From Rhodothermales bacterium (GTDB taxonomy: Bacteria > Bacteroidota > Rhodothermia > Rhodothermales > BA12): DNA of 64,000 bases. Under the pieces are notes generated by a model that worked only from the letters and a program-made list of their open reading frames with translations, had not been told where the DNA came from and searched no databases. This document shows positions 1,647 to 44,086 of the stretch, in pieces. A program made the position numbers and the translations under genes. How positions within the stretch are numbered: the first letter of the stretch is position 1; every line of letters begins with the position of its first letter. The stretch is from assembly GCA_963841855.1 (NCBI GenBank), contig CAWJEJ010000005.1, positions 284,873 through 348,872 of the forward strand, read 5' to 3'.

Positions 1647-4238
1647 TTAGCCCTCGTCCTCGTCTCCGTCGTCCGCATCGTCGTCGTTGAAGTCGTCGTC
1701 GGTGTTGACCGAGCCTTTGCCGGCTTTGGCCATCGCGTCGATTTCGTTGACGTTAGCTTTCGACGAGGTCGAGGTGACGGGTTTTCCCCCACCTCCTTCG
1801 GCCTTGTCCGCGACGGATGCGTCGGCGGCTTCAGCGGCCTCGTTCGCTTCGGCTTCTTCGAACTGCGCTTTGAGCGCGGCCAGTCCGGACAGTTCGCCGA
1901 GCGTTGCCGGGCCACTGCCCTGCTGCGACGACGCGTACGTCTGGATGTCCTGCCGCTCGCGCTGCTGACCTTCGCGGCGTTCGCGCTGCTCGGCGTAGCG
2001 CGCCGTGCGTGCGGCTTCGCGCTCCTGAGCGACTTCGGACAAGATGATGTCTTTGTTCTGCCCGTCGAAGCGGATGACACTGACGCCTTCGAGCACCTGG
2101 CCTTCCTTGTAGCTGTCGGCCGGATGTCCCTTGCGCTCCAGCTCACCAGCCGGAATGAAGCCTTCGACTTCGAGCGGAAGATCGACCGTGAGTCCTGCTT
2201 CGGCGACGCGTGTGACCGTGACCGGGTGCTGCGTGCCTTCGGCGTAGACGTTCTCGAACTGCTTCCACGGGTTCGTCTCGACCTGCTTGTGGCCCAGCGA
2301 AATGCGGCGGTTGCGCTCGTCGATTCCGAGCACCTGCACCTGAAGCTCCTCGCCCTTGCGGACGACTTCTCCAGGATGGCGCACCTTCTTGGTCCAGCTC
2401 AGGTCCGAGATGTGAACCAACCCGTCGATGCCTTCTTCGATCTCGACGAAGACGCCGAACGCCGTAATGTTGCGCACCTTGCCCGACAGCGTCGAGCCGA
2501 CCGGATGACGCGCTGCGATGCCGTCCCATGGGTCGGCCTGCATCTGCTTCATGCCCAGGCTGATCTTCTTCGACTCGTCGTCGATGTTGAGGATCTTGAC
2601 CTGGGTGATCTGGCCCAGGTTGACGACCTGGCTCGGGTGCTTGACGTGCTCGGTCCAGCTCATCTCGGAGATGTGAACCAGTCCTTCGATGCCACGGTCC
2701 AGCTCGACGAACGCGCCATAGTCGGTGATCGAGACGACCTTGCCTTCGACGACCTGGTCTTCCTTGAACGTCTCGTGGATGGTCTCCCACGGGTGCGGCA
2801 TCAGCTGCTTGTAGCCCAGCGAGATGCGCTGACGCTCGCGGTCGTAGTCCAAGACGACGACGTTAATCTGGTCTTCGATGTTGAGCACTTCGGACGGATG
2901 CGACACCCTACCCCAGCTGAGGTCCGTGATGTGCAGCAGCCCGTCGACGCCGCCCAAGTCGACGAAGACGCCGAAGTCGGTGATGTTCTTGACGGTGCCT
3001 TCGAGGATCTGGCCGGGCTCCATCGTCGAAAGGATTGTCTCACGCTGGGCGAGCAGGTCTTTTTCGACCAGGGCTTTGTGCGAGATGACGATGTTCTCGT
3101 TGGCCGGGTTGAGCTTGACGACCTTGAATTCCATCCGGCGCTCGAGATACGCGTCGAAGTCGCGCACGGGGCGCACGTCGATCTGCGATCCGGGCAGGAA
3201 CGCCTCCATGTCGCCCAGGTCCAGCTGCGCGATCATACCGCCCTTGATGCGGCGGATGATGACGCCTTCGATGACCTCTTCGGTCTCGAATGCTTTCTCC
3301 ACACGACGCCAGCGCTGCACGCTGTCGGCCTTGGTCTTGGAGATGATCGGCTCGCCCTTGTAGTTCTCCTTGCGCTCCAGGAAGACCTCGACGGTGTCGC
3401 CGGGCTTCAGGTCCTGCGAGAACTCGTTCTTGGCGACAACGCCGTCGCTCTTGAAGCCGAAGTCGATCAGGACGTCCTTGGGACCGACGCTGACGACCCT
3501 GCCCGTGACGATGTCCTGCTCGGAGATCTGCGTGATCGTGCCTTCGACGAGCGCTTCGTAGGCGGCACGGCGGCGGCGCTCTTCGACTTCGTCTTCCTGG
3601 TTTTCCAGGTCGGCAAGCGTGACGACGTCGCCCAGGATCTCGCCGGTGTATCCGATCTGGCCTTTGCTCTGGTTCTTGTTGAGGTCGGCGACCGTCATGG
3701 CCGCTTCGTCCTCTACGCGTTCGATGTCGTCGCCCGACACGATCTCTTGGATCGTCTCGACGGCGTCTTCGATGAGATGGCTACCGGCTTCGATAGCGCG
3801 CTCGAGAAAGCTTTTGTGCTCGCCTTCGGCGTCTTGCTTGGCAGACTGCTCGGCGGCTTCGGCCTCGGCCTGCTCAGCGGGCGTGAGCGCTTCGACCACG
3901 TCTTCGACCTTCTCGGCGACGGCTTTTGCAACGTCTCCTGCCTTGTCCGCAACCGTTTCGGCTTTGTCGACGACGATCTCGGCCGTGTCCGCGACGGCTT
4001 CGGCGGCATCGCTGACGGCTTCTTTGGCGGTCTCGACGGCTCCGGAAACGGCGTCGGCAGCGCGCTCGAGGAGGCTTTCCTTTTCTTCGGTAGGCGCGTC
4101 GTCGCTGACCGGCGTGGTCAGTGCGGCTTCGGGCTCGACCGAGGTGGGAGCAGTGTTTTTGGCGTTCGCCGCGTCTGCGGCAACTTCGGCGACCTGCTCT
4201 TCGGCGATCTCTTTGTCTTTTTGCTGGTTATCAGCCAT
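1647..4238 (-). CDS. rpsA: 30S ribosomal protein S1 with long acidic N- and C-terminal extensions
   Basis: Six S1/OB repeats are visible (e.g. ILEGTVKNITDFGVFVDLGGVDGLLHITDLSW, VVEGKVVSITDYGAFVELDRGIEGLVHISEMSW). Lies directly downstream of cmk, the classical order. Start set at ATG 4238 (MADNQQKD) because the longer ORF to 4496 overlaps cmk and is Arg-rich junk. Confidence 0.9.
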   Translation of the reverse strand: MADNQQKDKEIAEEQVAEVAADAANAKNTAPTSVEPEAALTTPVSDDAPTEEKESLLERAADAVSGAVETAKEAVSDAAEAVADTAEIVVDKAETVADKAGDVAKAVAEKVEDVVEALTPAEQAEAEAAEQSAKQDAEGEHKSFLERAIEAGSHLIEDAVETIQEIVSGDDIERVEDEAAMTVADLNKNQSKGQIGYTGEILGDVVTLADLENQEDEVEERRRRAAYEALVEGTITQISEQDIVTGRVVSVGPKDVLIDFGFKSDGVVAKNEFSQDLKPGDTVEVFLERKENYKGEPIISKTKADSVQRWRRVEKAFETEEVIEGVIIRRIKGGMIAQLDLGDMEAFLPGSQIDVRPVRDFDAYLERRMEFKVVKLNPANENIVISHKALVEKDLLAQRETILSTMEPGQILEGTVKNITDFGVFVDLGGVDGLLHITDLSWGRVSHPSEVLNIEDQINVVVLDYDRERQRISLGYKQLMPHPWETIHETFKEDQVVEGKVVSITDYGAFVELDRGIEGLVHISEMSWTEHVKHPSQVVNLGQITQVKILNIDDESKKISLGMKQMQADPWDGIAARHPVGSTLSGKVRNITAFGVFVEIEEGIDGLVHISDLSWTKKVRHPGEVVRKGEELQVQVLGIDERNRRISLGHKQVETNPWKQFENVYAEGTQHPVTVTRVAEAGLTVDLPLEVEGFIPAGELERKGHPADSYKEGQVLEGVSVIRFDGQNKDIILSEVAQEREAARTARYAEQRERREGQQRERQDIQTYASSQQGSGPATLGELSGLAALKAQFEEAEANEAAEAADASVADKAEGGGGKPVTSTSSKANVNEIDAMAKAGKGSVNTDDDFNDDDADDGDEDEG

Positions 4239-36368: not shown

Positions 36369-36914
36369 CTACGTCACCTGCGGCGGATGAGGCGATACGT
36401 CTCGGTCGAACGCTGCTTCGTCGATCTGTGGCCTGCCTCGAAACGCTACGGCCAGCGCACGCGCAAACAGGTAGCCCGCAACCGCGCCCAGCCCCCCTCC
36501 CGTCGCCATGCGCGAGAGCCACGTGTTGTCCCAGTAGCCGACGACCGGTCCGGCCCAGTCGAGGCCCGTCAGCACGAGCGCGCCGAGCAGCAGCCATTTG
36601 GCGTTTCGGTTGATCCACACATCGCCCCGTCCGACGAGGGGCAAGAGCAGTGCACCGATCACGAGTCCAGCATAGATGCCAAGGCAGCGCCAGCACACGG
36701 CCAGTTGGACGCCGTCGACGTGCGGCGAGCGGTCGGAGAGTTGGTGGCAGAAGGCGTGGAAAACCGTCATCGGCAGCATCCGCCAGCCGATTGGGAGGAA
36801 TGCGGGCGATAGGGCGCCGACGAGCAGCAGTCCGCACAGCGCGCCCGCCACTCCGGTCCCCATCCAACGGAAGCGGGTCAGCGAGCGAGCATGCGGGAGT
36901 GCGGCAGTGTTCAT
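36369..36914 (-). CDS. DUF2085 family membrane protein
   Basis: Pattern FHAFCHQLSDRSPHVDGVQLAVCWRCLGIYAG is typical of DUF2085. Confidence 0.65.
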   Translation of the reverse strand: MNTAALPHARSLTRFRWMGTGVAGALCGLLLVGALSPAFLPIGWRMLPMTVFHAFCHQLSDRSPHVDGVQLAVCWRCLGIYAGLVIGALLLPLVGRGDVWINRNAKWLLLGALVLTGLDWAGPVVGYWDNTWLSRMATGGGLGAVAGYLFARALAVAFRGRPQIDEAAFDRDVSPHPPQVT

Positions 36915-37544: not shown

Positions 37545-39197
<1,653 letters not shown>

Positions 39198-39224
39198 GCC
39201 ACCCCGCTCGCACTCAGCGATACG

Positions 39225-39266
39225 AGCCGAGGTCTGCCGAATGGTGGACCTCGGCTTTCTGCGTTT
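39225..39266 (+). terminator. groEL intrinsic terminator
   Basis: 10-bp stem AGCCGAGGTC / GACCTCGGCT with a 12-nt loop, followed by TTCTGCGTTT. Confidence 0.75.
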
Positions 39267-39419
39267 AAAGGGTGTATTAGCCAGATTTGTCGATTGCTCC
39301 AGTGCATTTCTGGGAGCAGGTGCCTAGGTTTTAAGCGCTTGCATACAGCGAGACGCCGGGCCGCTTTTGGCCCGGTATATTCCCTCATCGAGCGTACTAC
39401 GCTCCCATCTCATAACAAC

Positions 39420-40316
39420 GTGAGAAAACTCAATCCACGCTTTGGTCTGATCGCCATCGCACTCATTACCGTCGGCCTCTCCGCGTGCGACTCATCGCTC
39501 CCGGCCGAAGCAGTATCTCATGTTAATCCACACAATGCTGCAATAAATGCGGTAGTTTCGACGATCATCGAGAATCAATCGTCGATTAACGGATCAGTCA
39601 CAGATATAGATCAAGTCATCGGACTCCTTGATACCGAGGCTTTGCAAGCAATCGAAGTCTCGAACTCAGCCTTCAAATACTTCGGGAAAACCGAATTGCT
39701 ACCTTCAAATGATCTCATTGAATACGTTTCATTGTGTGGACCACTTGGATCCGACGAATTCAAAATGTGCCTAGAGCGCATAGAACTAGAAACAATGACC
39801 GTAGATCCCATAAACGATATTGATCTGTATTTCATCAGTATGACAAAAGGCGTCAATACCTTAGTCAAGAACGGGATTGTTGTTGACGATTTTCATGACA
39901 CAACGGCCGAATCCGCAATAAAGATCGAGCCATTAAGCATTGATCATTTTGATGATGATGACGGACCAGTTTCATATACTGATCTGTGGACAGCTGGGGG
40001 ATACATGGGATCTCTTTTCGGAGGAATGGGTCTAGGGGCTACGTTTGGGGCCGGAGCTGGATCAGTGGTTCCCAGCCTGGGTACGGGAGCGGGAGGCTTG
40101 GTTGGAGGGATACTTGGTGGTGTAGGCGGTCACTATGGATATTCAGCAGCCGTCTATCACGAATGGAAGATGAAAGCTGGATCTTGGTGCTCTAAGCAAT
40201 ACTCCAAATTTGAGCAGGATCAAGACGAAATGTATGTGAGCCTATGCGCAGGTCCGCGCGCTATACTCGAGCGCTGGGAGCAGCATGGATTAGTAAGAGA
40301 TGCAAACCCCGCTTAA
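39420..40316 (+). CDS. Hypothetical lipoprotein with C-terminal glycine-zipper (YMG-type) membrane segment
   Basis: GTG start gives VRKLNPRFGLIAIALITVGLSAC (lipobox). Next comes an acidic region of about 190 aa with no motif I recognise. Then GGYMGSLFGGMGLGATFGAGAGSVVPSLGTGAGGLVGGILGGVGGHYG, then a 55-aa tail with 2 Cys. Composition is AT-rich relative to the flanks. Confidence 0.6.
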   Translation: MRKLNPRFGLIAIALITVGLSACDSSLPAEAVSHVNPHNAAINAVVSTIIENQSSINGSVTDIDQVIGLLDTEALQAIEVSNSAFKYFGKTELLPSNDLIEYVSLCGPLGSDEFKMCLERIELETMTVDPINDIDLYFISMTKGVNTLVKNGIVVDDFHDTTAESAIKIEPLSIDHFDDDDGPVSYTDLWTAGGYMGSLFGGMGLGATFGAGAGSVVPSLGTGAGGLVGGILGGVGGHYGYSAAVYHEWKMKAGSWCSKQYSKFEQDQDEMYVSLCAGPRAILERWEQHGLVRDANPA

Positions 40317-40354
40317 TCACACGTAAAACGAAACAGACAGTTCGATTTCAAGGC

Positions 40355-40657
40355 ATGAACAATTCTGAATCCTCACATCAAACTCGACCACCTGTCATTC
40401 TTGACGCAGCGAGTTTCCTTCTACTCTGCTGGTCTTTGCTTCTTAGCTGGGCTTTTAGCGAATATATAATACCGGGCAAACTTCACGTTTTTACTGTGAT
40501 GTTTGTTGGTGGTAGTATATCTGTATCATTACAACTTAGCACAATAGGATATAGACTAGGTTTATCGAAGAGGAAGATCGAGGTGTCAAGTGTTTTCATA
40601 GGGTTTGTCTCTTTGATTTCTCCCATTTTGATCGGAATGTATCTGAATAGCCTTTGA
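40355..40657 (+). CDS. Small hypothetical 3-TM membrane protein
   Basis: 100 aa from ATG 40355 (MNNSESSHQ...) with three hydrophobic segments. AT-rich, same strand as the preceding lipoprotein gene and 38 nt after it. Confidence 0.5.
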   Translation: MNNSESSHQTRPPVILDAASFLLLCWSLLLSWAFSEYIIPGKLHVFTVMFVGGSISVSLQLSTIGYRLGLSKRKIEVSSVFIGFVSLISPILIGMYLNSL

Positions 40658-40759
40658 CATAAACATTTCCTGACCAGGAGATCGTTTTATGCTGATTTTA
40701 TTCGAATATGCCAGATGCGGGAAGTCACTCTCGTCGTACCATTCGCTCTGCGTAAACAC

Positions 40760-40793
40760 GAGCCGAGGCCTACCACGTGATGGGCCTCGGCTC
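40760..40793. terminator. Hairpin at the right edge of the AT-rich islet / downstream of the acylase gene
   Basis: Perfect 11-bp stem GAGCCGAGGCC / GGCCTCGGCTC followed by TTTGCTAGATTT. It is a diverged copy of the groEL terminator. The acylase stop is at 40809 on the opposite strand. Confidence 0.6.
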
Positions 40794-40808
40794 TTTGCTA
40801 GATTTGAG

Positions 40809-43226
40809 TCACTCCGCCGAAGTCAGTCGCGGATCGTCCGGCTCGGTCGTCAGGTGTAGGTCGTAGTACTCGAACGCGGTGAACGCGGGCAGATGCAAGT
40901 CGTAGAGCGACGAGAACGGATTGCCGCTTTGTCCGCCGGGGTAGATGCCCCAAGCTTGGGGAGTGCCCGATCCAAAGTCAACGACGACGCGCCACGAAGC
41001 GCTGTGGGTCGTGCGCAGGCCGCGCGCCGGAGAGAGCGTCGAGGCGAAGCCGGGATACTCGACGGGGCCGCGCCAGAACGGGCGAAGTGCGTCGCTTTCG
41101 GTGATGTGGCGGAAGACGACGGCGTGGTGATCGCCCCAGCGCCAGGCGGTCGTGTCGGCTCCGTAGCGCGCGTCCAGGCTGTCGGCGGCGCGGTTCAGGG
41201 TCAGCGCGAGAATGGCGGGTGCGTCTTCGCGCTCGGGCGTGGATTCGTTGTCGAACCAGGGACTGTCTGGGCTTTCGGCGTAGAGCCAGGGGAAAATGCC
41301 TTCGCTCGGAGTGCGTTTGAGCTCGGGCTCGTCCCACGTCAGATCATCGAGCATCCGAGTGAACACGTAGTAGGCCAGCGGCGCAGATCGGTCGTTGTCG
41401 GCGTCTCCGTTCCACGCAAGAAGCATCTGGCGCAGGTCGAGCGCGCGTGGCGACAGCGTCTGGGCGTCGAGATCGGCCATGAGCGGTGAGAGCAGATCGT
41501 GCTCGACGACGTGCACGTCGCTCTGGTAGCGTTTGAAGTCGTCGGCCGAGTGCGTCGGCTGGGCGCGCAGCAGGCTGTCTATCCTCAGGGGCCGCATCTC
41601 GGATTGCCAGTTTTGGCCCAGATAGTAGGGATAGTTGGCTCCGGCGAGCATCTGATTGGTCGACTGCAAGAAGCCATCGGTGGCGGCATCGCGGAACGGC
41701 AGATCGTCAAACGGAATGCGCCCGATCCACGCCGAGTCGGCCGTCGTTCCGTCCTGCACGCCCCACGCGACGCCAACGGATCGGATCGGCACGTGGCCGG
41801 TCGAGCGGATGCGGACGGTGCCGTCGACGCTCGCATAGGCGATGTTTTGCATCGGCGTGTCCCACAGCCTCGTGGCGTCGTCGAACTCGGCGCTCGTTCT
41901 GGCCGTGTTCATGCCCCACAGCGCGGCCATCGTGCGGTTGCGCTCGTGAGCGGTCCACTTCATCGCCAGCGCCTCGCCGTCGCGCATCGTGACCGGCCCC
42001 AGATGGCTGAGGCGCAGCGTGTCAGCCACTGCGTCGCCACCATTGACGTTGATGTCGGCGACCTCCATTACTAGGTCGCACCACTTCTCGCCGCAGCGGT
42101 ACTGCTGCTCGTCGTCCGAGAGTTCGAGGCGAAACCAGTCGACTTGGTCGGCGGGCGCGTTGGTGAAGGCCCAGGCATGATGGGGCGTGAACGCTTCGAC
42201 GGGCAGCGGCGCCCCGGGCACGGCGACGCCGTAGGTGTTGAGGTTGGGCGAGAGCATCCGCGCCTCGTACCAGATCGCGGGCAGCGTGAGCGAGAGGTGC
42301 ATGTCGCCCGCCAGCAGCGCGCCGCCCGAGGCCGAGTGCGACGGCGCGACGGCCCAGTTGTTCGAGCCTTTGCCCATTCGCAAGCCCTCCCACATCGTCC
42401 CAGCCGTCATCTCGTGGACGCGTTGCAGGTACGCGCTCAGCCTGGGCGCGCGTGCGCCGGCAGGAATCGACGCGGACACCTGGTCCTGTCCCCACGACGG
42501 GTCGACGGGCGGACCCAGGCGGGCGTAGCGCGGAAAGAGCGTGTCGTAGTCGGCGGCAAGATCGTCGGCCATGTCTGCATAGCCGGGCCAGTCGCTGCCC
42601 GACGAGAGGTCGAAAGCCATGTACTGCATCATGCGCAGGGTGTGAATCGGCGTCCACGGCTCGGGCGCGTAGCCGAGCAGTCGCATCTCGGCGGGATAGC
42701 CGGACGGGCTGAGGGCTGAGACGTAGGCGTTGACGCCCTGGGCGAACCACGTCAGCATCTCCAGTTCGAGGCCTCCCTCCTGCTGGATCGCCGCCCAGTT
42801 GCGCTGCGCGCCCCACTCCATGCCCGTACCGCGCAGGTAGCGGTCCGTGCCGATGGCCGACGAGCCGACTGCCTCGCTGAGCCTGCCCGCCGCGACGCGC
42901 GCGACGAAGTCCATCTGAAACAGGCGGTCTTGAGCCGTCGCCCAGCCCAGCGCGCGCACGGCATCGGCGTCCGTCTCGGCAAAGATGTGCGGCACGCCCC
43001 GTGCGTCGCGCACGATGGTGACGGCGGCATCCATCTCGTCCACATCGGGTTGGGCGCGCTCGGCATCCGCCATGCGCGCCGTGTGATACAGGCCGTCTGC
43101 CGGGTCGAGCATGAGGCCCAGTGGCGGGATCAAACCGACGCCCACCAATCCAATCCAGACCAACGCGATCAGCGCAGCCAGCGAGGTGATGAGGAGAATC
43201 AGAGAGCGCGTGCGAGAGGTCATCAC
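40809..43226 (-). CDS. Penicillin acylase family (Ntn-hydrolase) protein, N-terminally membrane-anchored
   Basis: 805 aa. Has an N-terminal TM/signal segment and the autoprocessing/nucleophile context MGKGSNNWAVAPSHSASGGALLAGDMHL. Confidence 0.85.
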   Translation of the reverse strand: MMTSRTRSLILLITSLAALIALVWIGLVGVGLIPPLGLMLDPADGLYHTARMADAERAQPDVDEMDAAVTIVRDARGVPHIFAETDADAVRALGWATAQDRLFQMDFVARVAAGRLSEAVGSSAIGTDRYLRGTGMEWGAQRNWAAIQQEGGLELEMLTWFAQGVNAYVSALSPSGYPAEMRLLGYAPEPWTPIHTLRMMQYMAFDLSSGSDWPGYADMADDLAADYDTLFPRYARLGPPVDPSWGQDQVSASIPAGARAPRLSAYLQRVHEMTAGTMWEGLRMGKGSNNWAVAPSHSASGGALLAGDMHLSLTLPAIWYEARMLSPNLNTYGVAVPGAPLPVEAFTPHHAWAFTNAPADQVDWFRLELSDDEQQYRCGEKWCDLVMEVADINVNGGDAVADTLRLSHLGPVTMRDGEALAMKWTAHERNRTMAALWGMNTARTSAEFDDATRLWDTPMQNIAYASVDGTVRIRSTGHVPIRSVGVAWGVQDGTTADSAWIGRIPFDDLPFRDAATDGFLQSTNQMLAGANYPYYLGQNWQSEMRPLRIDSLLRAQPTHSADDFKRYQSDVHVVEHDLLSPLMADLDAQTLSPRALDLRQMLLAWNGDADNDRSAPLAYYVFTRMLDDLTWDEPELKRTPSEGIFPWLYAESPDSPWFDNESTPEREDAPAILALTLNRAADSLDARYGADTTAWRWGDHHAVVFRHITESDALRPFWRGPVEYPGFASTLSPARGLRTTHSASWRVVVDFGSGTPQAWGIYPGGQSGNPFSSLYDLHLPAFTAFEYYDLHLTTEPDDPRLTSAE

Positions 43227-44086
43227 AGGATAGAGTCGGCGTAGGTAGGCGGATCCGTCGTCGGCACGTCGCCCGACTTGAGGCGAGCGTGGAGTTCGGC
43301 CGACCGCCCGCGTACGTCGGTGTGCAAGCCGCCCTTTCGAATGATGTGCAGGATTTCGTCGGCGGCGTTGGCATAGTTGCGCGGCCCGCGCGCCGTCGGC
43401 GAGCCGTCGAACGCCGTCTTGCCGACGCCGTGCTGACGCGACAGCTCGGTAGAGGTGCGGATCATCGACTTGAGCACGCAGGGTCCATAATGCTCTTTGA
43501 CGAGCGTGCGGTAGGCGTTGTGCGTCCCCTTACGCGCGTCGACCTGGGTGAACAGGAACATCGGATCGGTCAGCTGCGGATTGAGCTTGTGTTGGACAGT
43601 CCGGATCGTCTGGAACGTCTGCTCGGCGCCCAGCACGGGTTGATGCTCGGGCGTGACCGGGATGACGACGAAGCGCGACGCCACCAGCGCGTTGAGGCTA
43701 TAGACCGTAACGGCGGCGGCGGTGTCGAACAGGACGACGTCGTACTCGGGCGCGTTCTTGAGTGCCTCCTTGGCGTAGAGCACGTCGGTCGGCTTGGTCA
43801 GCTGGCGCATCGCGTGCGTCATTTTGCTCGACGACGGCAGCAGGTCGAAGCCGCTCGCCCGGACGATGGGCACCGTGGAGAGGTCGAAGTTGGGATCGAA
43901 GAGCGTGAGCGACGACGCCGTCACGTCAGGCTCGTCGATGTCGAGCAGACGCGTCAGGAAGCCTTGCGGGTCGAGGTCGACGACGAGGGTGCGCAGTCCG
44001 CTCAGGCCGAGAGCGGCGGCGAGGTGAGCGGCAGTCGTCGTCTTCCCCGTCCCTCCCTTGTGGTTACAGATGGATAGAACGATCAT
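43223..44086 (-). CDS. ParA/MinD-like P-loop ATPase
   Basis: Deviant Walker A in the N-terminus MIVLSICNHKGGTGKTTTAAHLAAAL, followed by VVDLDPQG. Its stop overlaps the acylase start (GTGA). Confidence 0.8.
   Translation of the reverse strand: MIVLSICNHKGGTGKTTTAAHLAAALGLSGLRTLVVDLDPQGFLTRLLDIDEPDVTASSLTLFDPNFDLSTVPIVRASGFDLLPSSSKMTHAMRQLTKPTDVLYAKEALKNAPEYDVVLFDTAAAVTVYSLNALVASRFVVIPVTPEHQPVLGAEQTFQTIRTVQHKLNPQLTDPMFLFTQVDARKGTHNAYRTLVKEHYGPCVLKSMIRTSTELSRQHGVGKTAFDGSPTARGPRNYANAADEILHIIRKGGLHTDVRGRSAELHARLKSGDVPTTDPPTYADSIL

Follow-up and report, generated by a model that had tools for sequence, protein, structure and literature searches.

What is an AT-rich islet of 1.5 kb, carrying two unfamiliar genes, doing between groEL and an acylase gene, and how does such a piece of DNA come and go at one chromosomal site? 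The question is raised by the window, as the whole stretch of DNA analysed is called here (64,000 nucleotides of a Rhodothermales bacterium; contig CAWJEJ010000005.1 of assembly GCA_963841855.1, positions 284,873 to 348,872 of the forward strand). The islet, which lies between two hairpins at 39263-40757, is a cassette of two genes: open reading frame (ORF) A encodes a lipoprotein with a glycine zipper and ORF B a small protein with three hydrophobic segments. Comparison with relatives indicates that it is one allele of a hypervariable two-gene locus placed just after groEL in a Rhodothermales clade, and that this locus represents a new, very rare protein family housed in a cassette that is bracketed by terminators and swaps alleles. 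(This is a modest claim, which covers six loci and sequence comparison alone.)

The islet and its two genes

The first-pass annotation had inferred an AT-rich islet from hand counts of G+C in 60-nt segments (25/60 for 39541-39600, 23/60 for 40441-40500 and 42/60 for 41041-41100). These counts are exact, and sliding-window G+C content (GC) across the 64 kb bears the islet out. GC is 0.460 between the hairpins (39263-40757) and 0.652 across the remaining window; the lowest-GC segment of 1500 nt begins at 39257, the next lowest outside the region stands at 0.604, and the islet is the sole low-GC spot within the window. Hairpins are indeed present at the islet's borders (39225-39256 and 40761-40792). 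The islet is also present at the same locus on a contig from an independent sample (L052), with both hairpins, ORF B, an ORF A that is different in one amino acid (aa), and a single-nucleotide polymorphism (SNP) count of 1 in 1970 nt.

ORF A (39420-40316, + strand) starts at GTG and encodes a 298-aa lipoprotein with the parts originally described for it, namely a lipobox signal, an acidic region, a glycine zipper and a 55-aa tail with two Cys. Its signal peptide and lipobox (39420-39488, + strand; MRKLNPRFGLIAIALITVGLSA, then Cys) are read as LITVGLSA-C, with Cys23 as the lipid-modified residue and Asp at position +2; going 3', this segment is the last to be conserved with the otherwise unrelated allele of locus L003, considered below. 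The mature protein comprises an acidic helical N-domain with a Cys pair (aa 23-188; 30 Asp or Glu versus 7 Lys or Arg in 166 aa), the glycine zipper (aa 189-243; LWTAGGYMGSLFGGMGLGATFGAGAGSVVPSLGTGAGGLVGGILGGVGGHYGYSA, 39984-40148, + strand) and the Cys-containing tail (aa 244-298; 40149-40313, + strand), which carries the motif W..(x)..WC..Q....Y..LC.G. Two zipper helices are arranged around a Pro turn, with 21 Gly in 55 aa, repeated G/A-xxx-G spacing and no charged residue, and this segment is presumed to be the membrane-inserting element of ORF A; the two Cys of the tail presumably form a disulfide. A longer ORF A starting from TTG at 39294 was rejected on two grounds: in L003 an upstream stop codon lies in frame, and it is at the GTG that the signal peptide of canonical form begins.

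The leader upstream of ORF A (39263-39419, + strand) is conserved with the L003 cassette and recognisable in two further ones (L053 and L055; alignment A2). By blastn, positions 38900-39454 of the window are 82% identical to L003 12415-11840. A stem-loop in the leader, CCGGGCC-GCTTTT-GGCCCGG at 39356-39375, lies about 45 nt 5' of the ORF A start and is partly preserved in L003 (GAGCC...GGCCC); to judge by its sequence, it could be an attenuator or a structure at the 5' end of the transcript. No sigma-70-type promoter was found in the leader by consensus scan.

ORF B (40355-40657, + strand) begins 38 nt after ORF A and is the candidate cognate partner, or immunity protein. It has the 100 aa and the three hydrophobic segments with which it had been credited.

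A small family with an obligate partner gene

An exhaustive HMMER search of 1.84 billion cluster representatives puts ORF A in a family of five members, at 24-28% identity, among about 15 billion proteins. P0002 (E 1.4e-13), P0036 and P0006 are full-length relatives, and P0003 is an N-domain relative of which P0050 is a fuller form. About 40 further HMMER matches span the zipper alone, and several of these carry PF13488. Word-indexed protein searches with ORF A, with the full family profile and with a zipper-less profile yielded no further members (the one with ORF A found ORF A alone), and the family members have no match in Pfam, NCBIfam, PADLOC or the PDB. That no family could be recognised for either protein, as had been said of them at first, has to be amended for ORF A, which has a tiny unnamed one; ORF B has no Pfam family.

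The members have a common plan (alignments A1 and A4): a lipobox Cys-Asp, an N..P(Y) motif and a Cys pair in the helical N-domain are followed by a Pro- or acid-rich linker, a double glycine zipper and a W...WC..Q.....Y..LC.G tail. Cys23, Asp24, several Gly, Trp256, Cys257 and Cys276 are invariant (A1, A4) at this low level of identity, which argues that ORF A-type proteins are real and under constraint. Outside its family, ORF A has significant similarity in the zipper alone, over about 60-90 residues of low complexity: aa 179-270 match the glycine-zipper segments of tape-measure, tail-lysin and endolysin families in PHROG at E 3.6e-7 to 5e-3. A PDB profile search found nothing below E 0.09, tblastn against 50,697 phage records and against plasmids found no homolog, and ORF A with four homologs gave no match at E<=1 to PF05433 (Rick_17kDa_Anti), PF13488 (Gly-zipper_Omp) or PF13441. 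The suggestion that ORF A might be a SlyB/Pcp-type lipoprotein is not supported: no Pfam glycine-zipper family matches it, profile searches do not place it in a housekeeping SlyB/Pcp-like family without a linked ORF B, and the gene is neither conserved nor partner-less.

The two-gene character of the islet, on the other hand, is confirmed in its relatives. A small ORF with 3-4 transmembrane (TM) segments lies on the same strand directly 3' of the lipoprotein gene in 6/6 cassettes (those of the five family members and that of the unrelated allele in L003), at distances that range from a 4-nt overlap to 107 nt. The partner of P0002 in L053 has 106 aa and 3 TM segments and starts 14 nt after it; that of P0050 in L055 (97 aa, 3 TM) and that of P0036 in L054 (2161-2496; 111 aa, 3 TM) overlap by 4 nt, the latter with the stop codon of P0036; that of P0006 in L051 (169 aa, about 4 TM) follows after 107 nt, and that of the unrelated L003 lipoprotein (85 aa, 3 TM) after 12 nt. 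These proteins are alike in size and topology. Small partner genes of the ORF B kind are easily missed in annotation. The source gene callers skipped the L054 partner and the ORF B of L052, and the call made on L052 is a 47-aa ORF on the opposite strand.

The Asp+2 of the lipoprotein (window 39486-39491) is invariant in the six cassettes, including the unrelated L003 allele (the sequences are CDSS three times, CDSI, CDNQ and CDFL). As a conserved feature next to the lipidated Cys it may be a sorting signal.

Alleles at one site

A search with the acylase retrieves metagenome-assembled genomes of Rhodothermales. In three of them (L001, L002 and L003) the acylase is 86-90% identical and groEL is convergent with its gene, with a completely different interval between the two. 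This interval is 1.6 kb in the window, with the cassette alone. In L001 it is about 1.8 kb and holds one hairpin, an outer-membrane (OM) barrel gene and an FkbM-type methyltransferase gene, at host GC. In L002 it is about 5.6 kb, with no hairpin, a gene for a methyl-accepting chemotaxis protein (MCP), a porin-like gene and the same barrel and methyltransferase genes as in L001. In L003 it is about 3.7 kb, with an AT-rich cassette beside groEL and three host-GC genes. Neither L001 nor L002 has the cassette, and the window ceases to be homologous to L001 at 39264, just past hairpin 1. The space between terminator and acylase gene is plastic in these genomes (L001 8443-10142, L002 3809-9317, L003 8448-10818); the three other genes of L003 encode exported or OM-like proteins, and the window is without any of the interval genes of L001-L003.

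Viewed in the orientation of the window, the L003 cassette presents the elements of the window's islet in the same order: groEL stop codon, hairpin 1, leader, signal peptide (MRNFNTRLGLIAFAVLALALPA, running into CDSS), AT-rich lipoprotein body, 3-TM ORF and hairpin 2. The lipoprotein itself is another matter. The hhalign alignment of family profile A1 with the L003 lipoprotein is limited to GLIAIALITVGLSACDSSLP, that is, to the signal peptide, which implies that the variable unit starts within the signal-peptide codons and ends at hairpin 2. (A tblastn comparison with the L003 lipoprotein, 28% identity over 95 aa at E 2e-5, hints at slight further similarity.)

Four of the six cassettes (window, L003, L053 and L055) lie directly after groEL and between duplicated terminators. 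P0002 (L053) and P0050 (L055) are each encoded after a groEL C-terminus, with terminator repeats of 34 nt (97% identical, 1515 nt apart) and 32 nt (100% identical, 1574 nt apart), respectively. The remaining two have no terminator repeat: P0036 (L054) is encoded elsewhere, with an AraC-type gene upstream, in a host of GC 0.73, and P0006 (L051) on a contig of GC 0.35. The last 600 nt of groEL are 86-91% identical as DNA among the window, L001-L003, L053 and L055, whereas the lipoproteins encoded at the same site are 25-28% identical (P0002, P0050) or, past leader and signal peptide, unrelated (L003). Every allele falls below its host in GC; the values are 0.46 versus 0.65 in the window, 0.52-0.60 versus 0.73 in L054 and 0.53 versus 0.63-0.69 in L053.

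These comparisons bear on the proposal of a horizontally acquired islet. What stands is that the cassette is accessory and variable among relatives, and that it is not conserved at the groEL-acylase junction with host-like composition; what does not stand is the picture of a free-standing 1.5-kb insert, since it is gene bodies that appear to be exchanged.

Two of the alleles have a further peculiarity. A C9 tract directly follows the canonical ATG-Arg start of the lipoprotein gene in L053 (391-399) and in L055 (946-954). In both contigs a tract of this length puts the ATG out of frame with signal peptide and body; it would be in frame with 7 or 10 C in L053 and with 8 or 11 C in L055. The tract could be a switch for phase variation by strand slippage, or else an error made in assembling a homopolymer. 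Neither the window's allele nor that of L003 has a C tract, and both start at GTG.

DNA beyond hairpin 2 also differs between these two loci: in L055 (2366-2862) it encodes a 75-aa ORF and a ParE-like toxin, a putative toxin-antitoxin (TA) pair, and in L053 (1749-2003) a different, unrelated ORF that is cut by the contig end.

The duplicated groEL terminator

That the two hairpins are copies of one 41-nt sequence had escaped the first-pass annotation. Hairpin 1 (39222-39262, + strand) is the groEL terminator stem-loop and the left copy of a direct repeat; hairpin 2 (40758-40798, not assigned to a strand) is the right copy and lies 10 nt from the acylase stop codon. The copies are 78% identical. 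The pattern AGCCGAGG-N(8-24)-CCTCGGCT occurs twice in the 64 kb, both times at the islet hairpins, with 0 occurrences expected by chance. Folded as RNA, hairpin 1 is more stable on the + strand than on the - strand (-31.8 versus -22.4 kcal/mol) and hairpin 2 equally stable on both (-28.9 and -29.0 kcal/mol, respectively); z is about -5, and 0/200 shuffles are as stable. Equal folding on both strands, together with the distance of 10 nt to the acylase stop codon, suggests that hairpin 2 could end the transcripts of ORF B and of the acylase gene alike, and it is probably a bidirectional terminator for these convergent genes.

Across 9 hairpin copies from five genomes, 94.7% of stem cells are paired and 4/15 pairs have changed on both sides; several stem pairs are G-U on the sense strand. 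Covariation and sense-strand G-U pairs fit an RNA terminator better than a DNA recombination site. U-tracts follow the hairpin versions of L053 and L055. Identification of the hairpins as integron attC sites, as the target duplication of an insertion sequence or transposon, or as repetitive extragenic palindromic (REP) elements was rejected, given that they are a groEL terminator present in 2 copies in 64 kb and have sense-strand G-U pairs. (attC sites are imperfect palindromes of 57-141 nt with a GTTRRRY core; here there is no GTTRRRY core, a single cassette, no integrase among the adjacent ORFs, and repeats of only 32-41 nt.) An Rfam search of the islet gave no match.

How unusual is such a repeat next to groEL? 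Every locus was scored by the same statistic: the 100 nt that follow the groEL stop codon were compared, in ungapped stretches of 34 nt, with all sequence lying over 300 nt downstream, and the best match was taken. Scores are 27, 32, 33 and 33 for the four cassette loci, 24 for L001 and 20 for L002; the median for 66 unrelated metagenome groEL junctions is 21, and 1/66 (L060) reaches >=27. In L060, from an unrelated taxon, the terminator AAGGCCCGGTCGCAAGACCGGGCCTTTTTCGT is found at 28-61 and again at about 3416-3450 after the groEL stop codon. L060 was rejected as an analogous case: its two copies, 3.4 kb apart, surround ordinary host-GC housekeeping genes, and that genome probably uses the sequence throughout, as a terminator or a REP-type repeat. 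A family member is encoded in 0/120 control groEL junctions. A metagenome scan with the hairpin pattern gave 0 matches, and one anchored on the groEL 3' end gave no new member of the clade among the matches listed (other taxa, at most 76% identical).

The hairpins also carry a record of descent. Hairpin stems are lineage-specific yet matched inside each genome. In alignment A6 (nine hairpins), the 3' tail signature GGCTCTTTGC is common to hairpin 2 of the window and of L003, and the signature GGCGTTTTGCGTTG to the hairpin-2 copies of L053 and L055; tail signatures that are common across lineages suggest that the arrangement of hairpin 1, cassette and hairpin 2 is old. Some copies are mosaic: hairpin 2 of L055 (2266-2314) is chimeric, with an L055-type left arm and a right half of the window/L003 type, and the loop of the window's hairpin 2 (40758-40798), CACGTG, is that of L055 hairpin 1. 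Such mosaics suggest that terminator copies have recombined, internally or with one another, across lineages.

The locus has a frame, made up of hairpin 1, leader, signal peptide and hairpin 2, that is shared with relatives and probably ancestral. From the same alignments we infer that alleles are replaced by recombination in the conserved flanks and that the two terminator copies exchange sequence. If the copies recombined with each other, one hairpin would remain, which is the state found in L001; the L001 state may be such a deletion or may be the original state.

What the cassette might do

The reading favoured here, tentatively and with somewhat less than even confidence, is that the cassette encodes a polymorphic, membrane-permeabilising lipoprotein toxin and its cognate inner-membrane immunity protein, swapped between conserved flanks. 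ORF A would leave the cytoplasm by the Sec/lipoprotein pathway and be held by a lipid anchor at Cys23; its double glycine zipper, which has no charge, would insert in a membrane, oligomerise and cause leakage, with the disulfide-bonded N-domain and C-terminal tail on the periplasmic or external side. ORF B, co-transcribed, would be a three-helix inner-membrane protein that specifically neutralises its own ORF A, and cells that have another allele, or no cassette at all, would be sensitive. If the lipoprotein reaches other cells, it may do so by exposure on the surface, in vesicles or through contact. Relatives would exchange alleles by homologous recombination in the flanks, where groEL, terminator 1, leader and signal peptide form the left arm and the duplicated terminator 2 the right, and recombination between the two terminator copies would loop the cassette out. 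What makes a toxin-immunity pair fit is that two proteins, one exported and equipped with an uncharged zipper, the other small and of the inner membrane, co-vary at a locus that is hypervariable, patchy in distribution and low in GC. The accessory genes among which cassettes sit (the ParE-like TA pair in L055, a different downstream gene in L053) are supporting context, and the comparative evidence leans toward toxin and immunity protein over a non-toxic envelope protein.

Several points weigh against this reading. No match in sequence or profile to a known toxin, immunity or defence family was found, and no secretion or delivery apparatus is encoded beside the cassette. Homology between partner proteins is weak (27% over 66 aa, E 0.004, for ORF B and the L053 partner). 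AlphaFold2 models of ORF A are unusable, at a predicted local distance difference test score (pLDDT) of 37 for the sequence alone and 40.7 with the 5-sequence family alignment. The loci known are six, most of them on short metagenomic contigs, and linkage statistics are thin. Asp+2 is an inner-membrane retention signal in E. coli (a rule that may not be that of Rhodothermota), and its invariance would fit a module acting on its own cell better than an exported bacteriocin. Finally, hypervariability and phase variation can also arise in surface lipoproteins that are not toxins but are under pressure from phages or predators.

The last consideration leads to the strongest competitor, which is possible if doubtful: a non-toxic, variable envelope module in which ORF A would be a zipper-anchored surface or OM lipoprotein (a SlyB/YfgH-like stabiliser, an adhesin or a decoy) and ORF B an inner-membrane partner in assembly or signalling, with diversity driven by phage, predator or kin-recognition pressure on the exposed protein. 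Paired Cys do indicate an extracytoplasmic folded protein, C9 tracts after the start, as in L053 and L055, are typical of phase-variable surface proteins, and a site after the heat-shock gene groEL could permit stress-linked read-through, although a strong terminator stands between groEL and the cassette. Lipobox and glycine zipper together make up the SlyB/YfgH plan (bioRxiv 10.64898/2025.12.22.696046), but PF05433, PF13488 and PF13441 go unmatched even at the permissive threshold. Moreover, genes of the SlyB type are conserved and single, while ORF A is absent or replaced in close relatives and always accompanied by a co-varying TM partner; a lipoprotein and a partner that vary together bear the mark of a pair in which one specifically neutralises the other.

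Invariance of Asp+2 in all alleles is more at home in a rather unlikely third explanation, that of a self-acting membrane module, either an addiction (toxin-antitoxin-like) pair or one for abortive infection or exclusion. The Asp+2 lipoprotein would stay on the producer's inner membrane, restrained by ORF B until phage infection or loss of the locus frees the pore and the cell depolarises. The lack of a delivery system nearby would then be expected; low GC, presence/absence variation, a setting like that of an accessory-gene hotspot (a ParE-like TA pair adjoins the L055 cassette) and a zipper that resembles phage membrane-inserting segments are all consistent with it. Set against these are the lack of a PADLOC match, of a phage or plasmid homolog by tblastn and of a recognisable sensor or regulatory domain, as well as the doubt whether Rhodothermota follow the Asp+2 sorting rule at all.

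That the cassette is the remnant of a phage lysis cassette is highly improbable. ORF B, a 3-TM protein of about 100 aa, has the size of a holin and could be taken for one of class I, and ORF A, with its lipobox, membrane-active C-terminal region and PHROG tail-lysin/endolysin matches (limited to the zipper), for something like a unimolecular spanin, but there are no endolysin or other phage genes in the window or at the six loci and no tblastn match in the 50,697 phage records, the lipoprotein comes first in gene order, and a 190-aa acidic domain and a 55-aa tail after the TM segment are unlike known spanins. Chance ORFs in non-functional, AT-rich foreign DNA, which might be suspected because no known domain was found and ORF B went uncalled on the Logan contig L052, can hardly account for five family members that keep Cys, Gly and Trp positions and domain order at 24-28% identity, for a same-strand small TM ORF in 6/6 loci, or for an independent sample that carries the islet with 1 SNP in 1970 nt.

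Returning to the toxin-immunity pair, a more far-reaching version can be put forward as conjecture, and is itself not probable: the locus would be a contingency locus of a kind not described before, in which lipid-anchored, glycine-zipper, pore-forming bacteriocins of a family specific to Rhodothermota/Bacteroidota are interchangeable alleles, each with its 3-TM immunity gene, in a recombinase-free, terminator-bracketed frame on the ultra-conserved groEL, with some alleles switched by a poly-C tract among the codons of the signal peptide and with groEL and the duplicated terminator as homology arms for spread to diverged relatives and for loop-out.

If ORF A is a toxin, it would stand for a new family of antibacterial proteins that act on membranes. 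Its hosts, the Rhodothermales, live in halophilic, marine and soil settings, and their interbacterial weapons are, to our knowledge, almost unknown. Glycine-zipper toxins have so far come from type I (Cdz), type VI (Tse4, Ssp6, Tde1) and type VII secretion systems, and ORF A would add one that is routed by the Sec/lipoprotein pathway. Whatever its function, the locus offers a clean natural example of allele replacement, with a housekeeping gene and its terminator on one side, the duplicated terminator on the other, and an empty site and chimeric repeat copies visible in relatives. An allele-swap frame of this kind could be the reason that small accessory cassettes gather beside highly conserved genes.

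Neighbouring genes

GroEL (37554-39197, + strand; 547 aa, with 97.8-98.4% aa identity to the proteins of L003 and L001) is the conserved left anchor and lies outside the cassette. The convergent right neighbour (40809-43226, - strand) encodes an acylase of the penicillin-amidase family (PF01804, E 7e-170). Directly upstream of the acylase gene and on the same strand is a gene for a ParA/MinD-like P-loop ATPase (43223-44086, - strand; PF13614, E 2.8e-31), and a DUF2085 membrane protein is encoded upstream of groES (36369-36914, - strand). The ATPase and DUF2085 genes, at host GC, appear to be unrelated to the cassette.

Comparison with known systems

Lipoproteins of the SlyB/Pcp/YfgH type (PF05433, PF13488) share with ORF A an N-terminal lipobox followed by a two-helix glycine zipper. 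They are encoded by conserved single genes. ORF A differs from them in having no Pfam match and in what flanks its zipper, an acidic domain of 166 aa on the N-terminal side and a Cys-tail on the other, and its gene in being low in GC, not conserved among relatives and always paired with a small TM ORF.

Pore-forming colicins are neutralised by inner-membrane immunity proteins with 3 TM (E1-type) or 4 TM (A-type) segments. Both classes are mirrored by the partners found here (85-111 aa with 3 TM segments; 169 aa with about 4 in L051), as is the adjacency of toxin and immunity genes. The cassette is unlike colicin determinants in being chromosomal rather than plasmid-borne, in having no SOS or lysis gene, and in the co-directional orientation of its candidate immunity gene; no colicin pore-forming domain was matched in ORF A by Pfam or PDB sequence search.

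Of the remaining systems, Tde1, SitA/SitI and Cdz, none is a family match to ORF A by sequence, and likeness is at the level of architecture. The glycine zipper of the type VI effector Tde1 raises membrane permeability and is needed to cross the target inner membrane (PMC10240207). The zippers of ORF A, of phage tape-measure proteins and of Tde1 would be motifs of the same class, but the cassette has no tail, type VI or nuclease context, and no type VI components (Hcp, VgrG, PAAR or adaptor) are encoded in the ORFs flanking the six cassettes.

SitA/SitI of myxobacteria are horizontally acquired, polymorphic lipobox toxins with an immunity gene immediately downstream (PMC5562445, PMC8546572). 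The order of a lipobox protein and a candidate immunity gene, and the high polymorphism, are the same here. SitA, however, has conserved N-terminal families and, at the C-terminus, variable nuclease domains whose site of action is the cytoplasm, and its partner SitI is a soluble protein (e.g. SUKH). SitA delivery depends on outer-membrane exchange by TraAB, a system not known outside Myxococcales (PMC5562445). In ORF A it is the whole mature protein that varies, the likely target is a membrane and the partner is a TM protein. Nothing like the SitA escort plus nuclease domain is apparent: no nuclease or other Pfam domain was found, homologs diverge over their full length, and the L003 allele shares the signal peptide alone.

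In Caulobacter crescentus the glycine-zipper bacteriocins CdzC/CdzD are neutralised by CdzI, a small 3-TM inner-membrane protein (PMC5380434). Cdz proteins are small, aggregate-forming and exported by a type I system, CdzAB, while ORF A, a Sec/lipobox lipoprotein, runs to 298 aa and has a Cys-tail besides its large acidic N-domain; CdzAB-type secretion genes and an RTX-like signal are not found at the locus (its neighbours are groEL and the acylase gene, and the ORF A signal is of the Sec/lipobox kind), and no sequence relationship has been demonstrated between the two. By analogy of design, CdzC/CdzD with CdzI would nevertheless be the nearest worked example for ORF A and ORF B: an extended glycine zipper as the active element of an envelope-associated protein, an operon whose next gene encodes a small 3-TM protein of the inner membrane (predicted from sequence, in the case of the cassette), and presumed pore formation in the target inner membrane.

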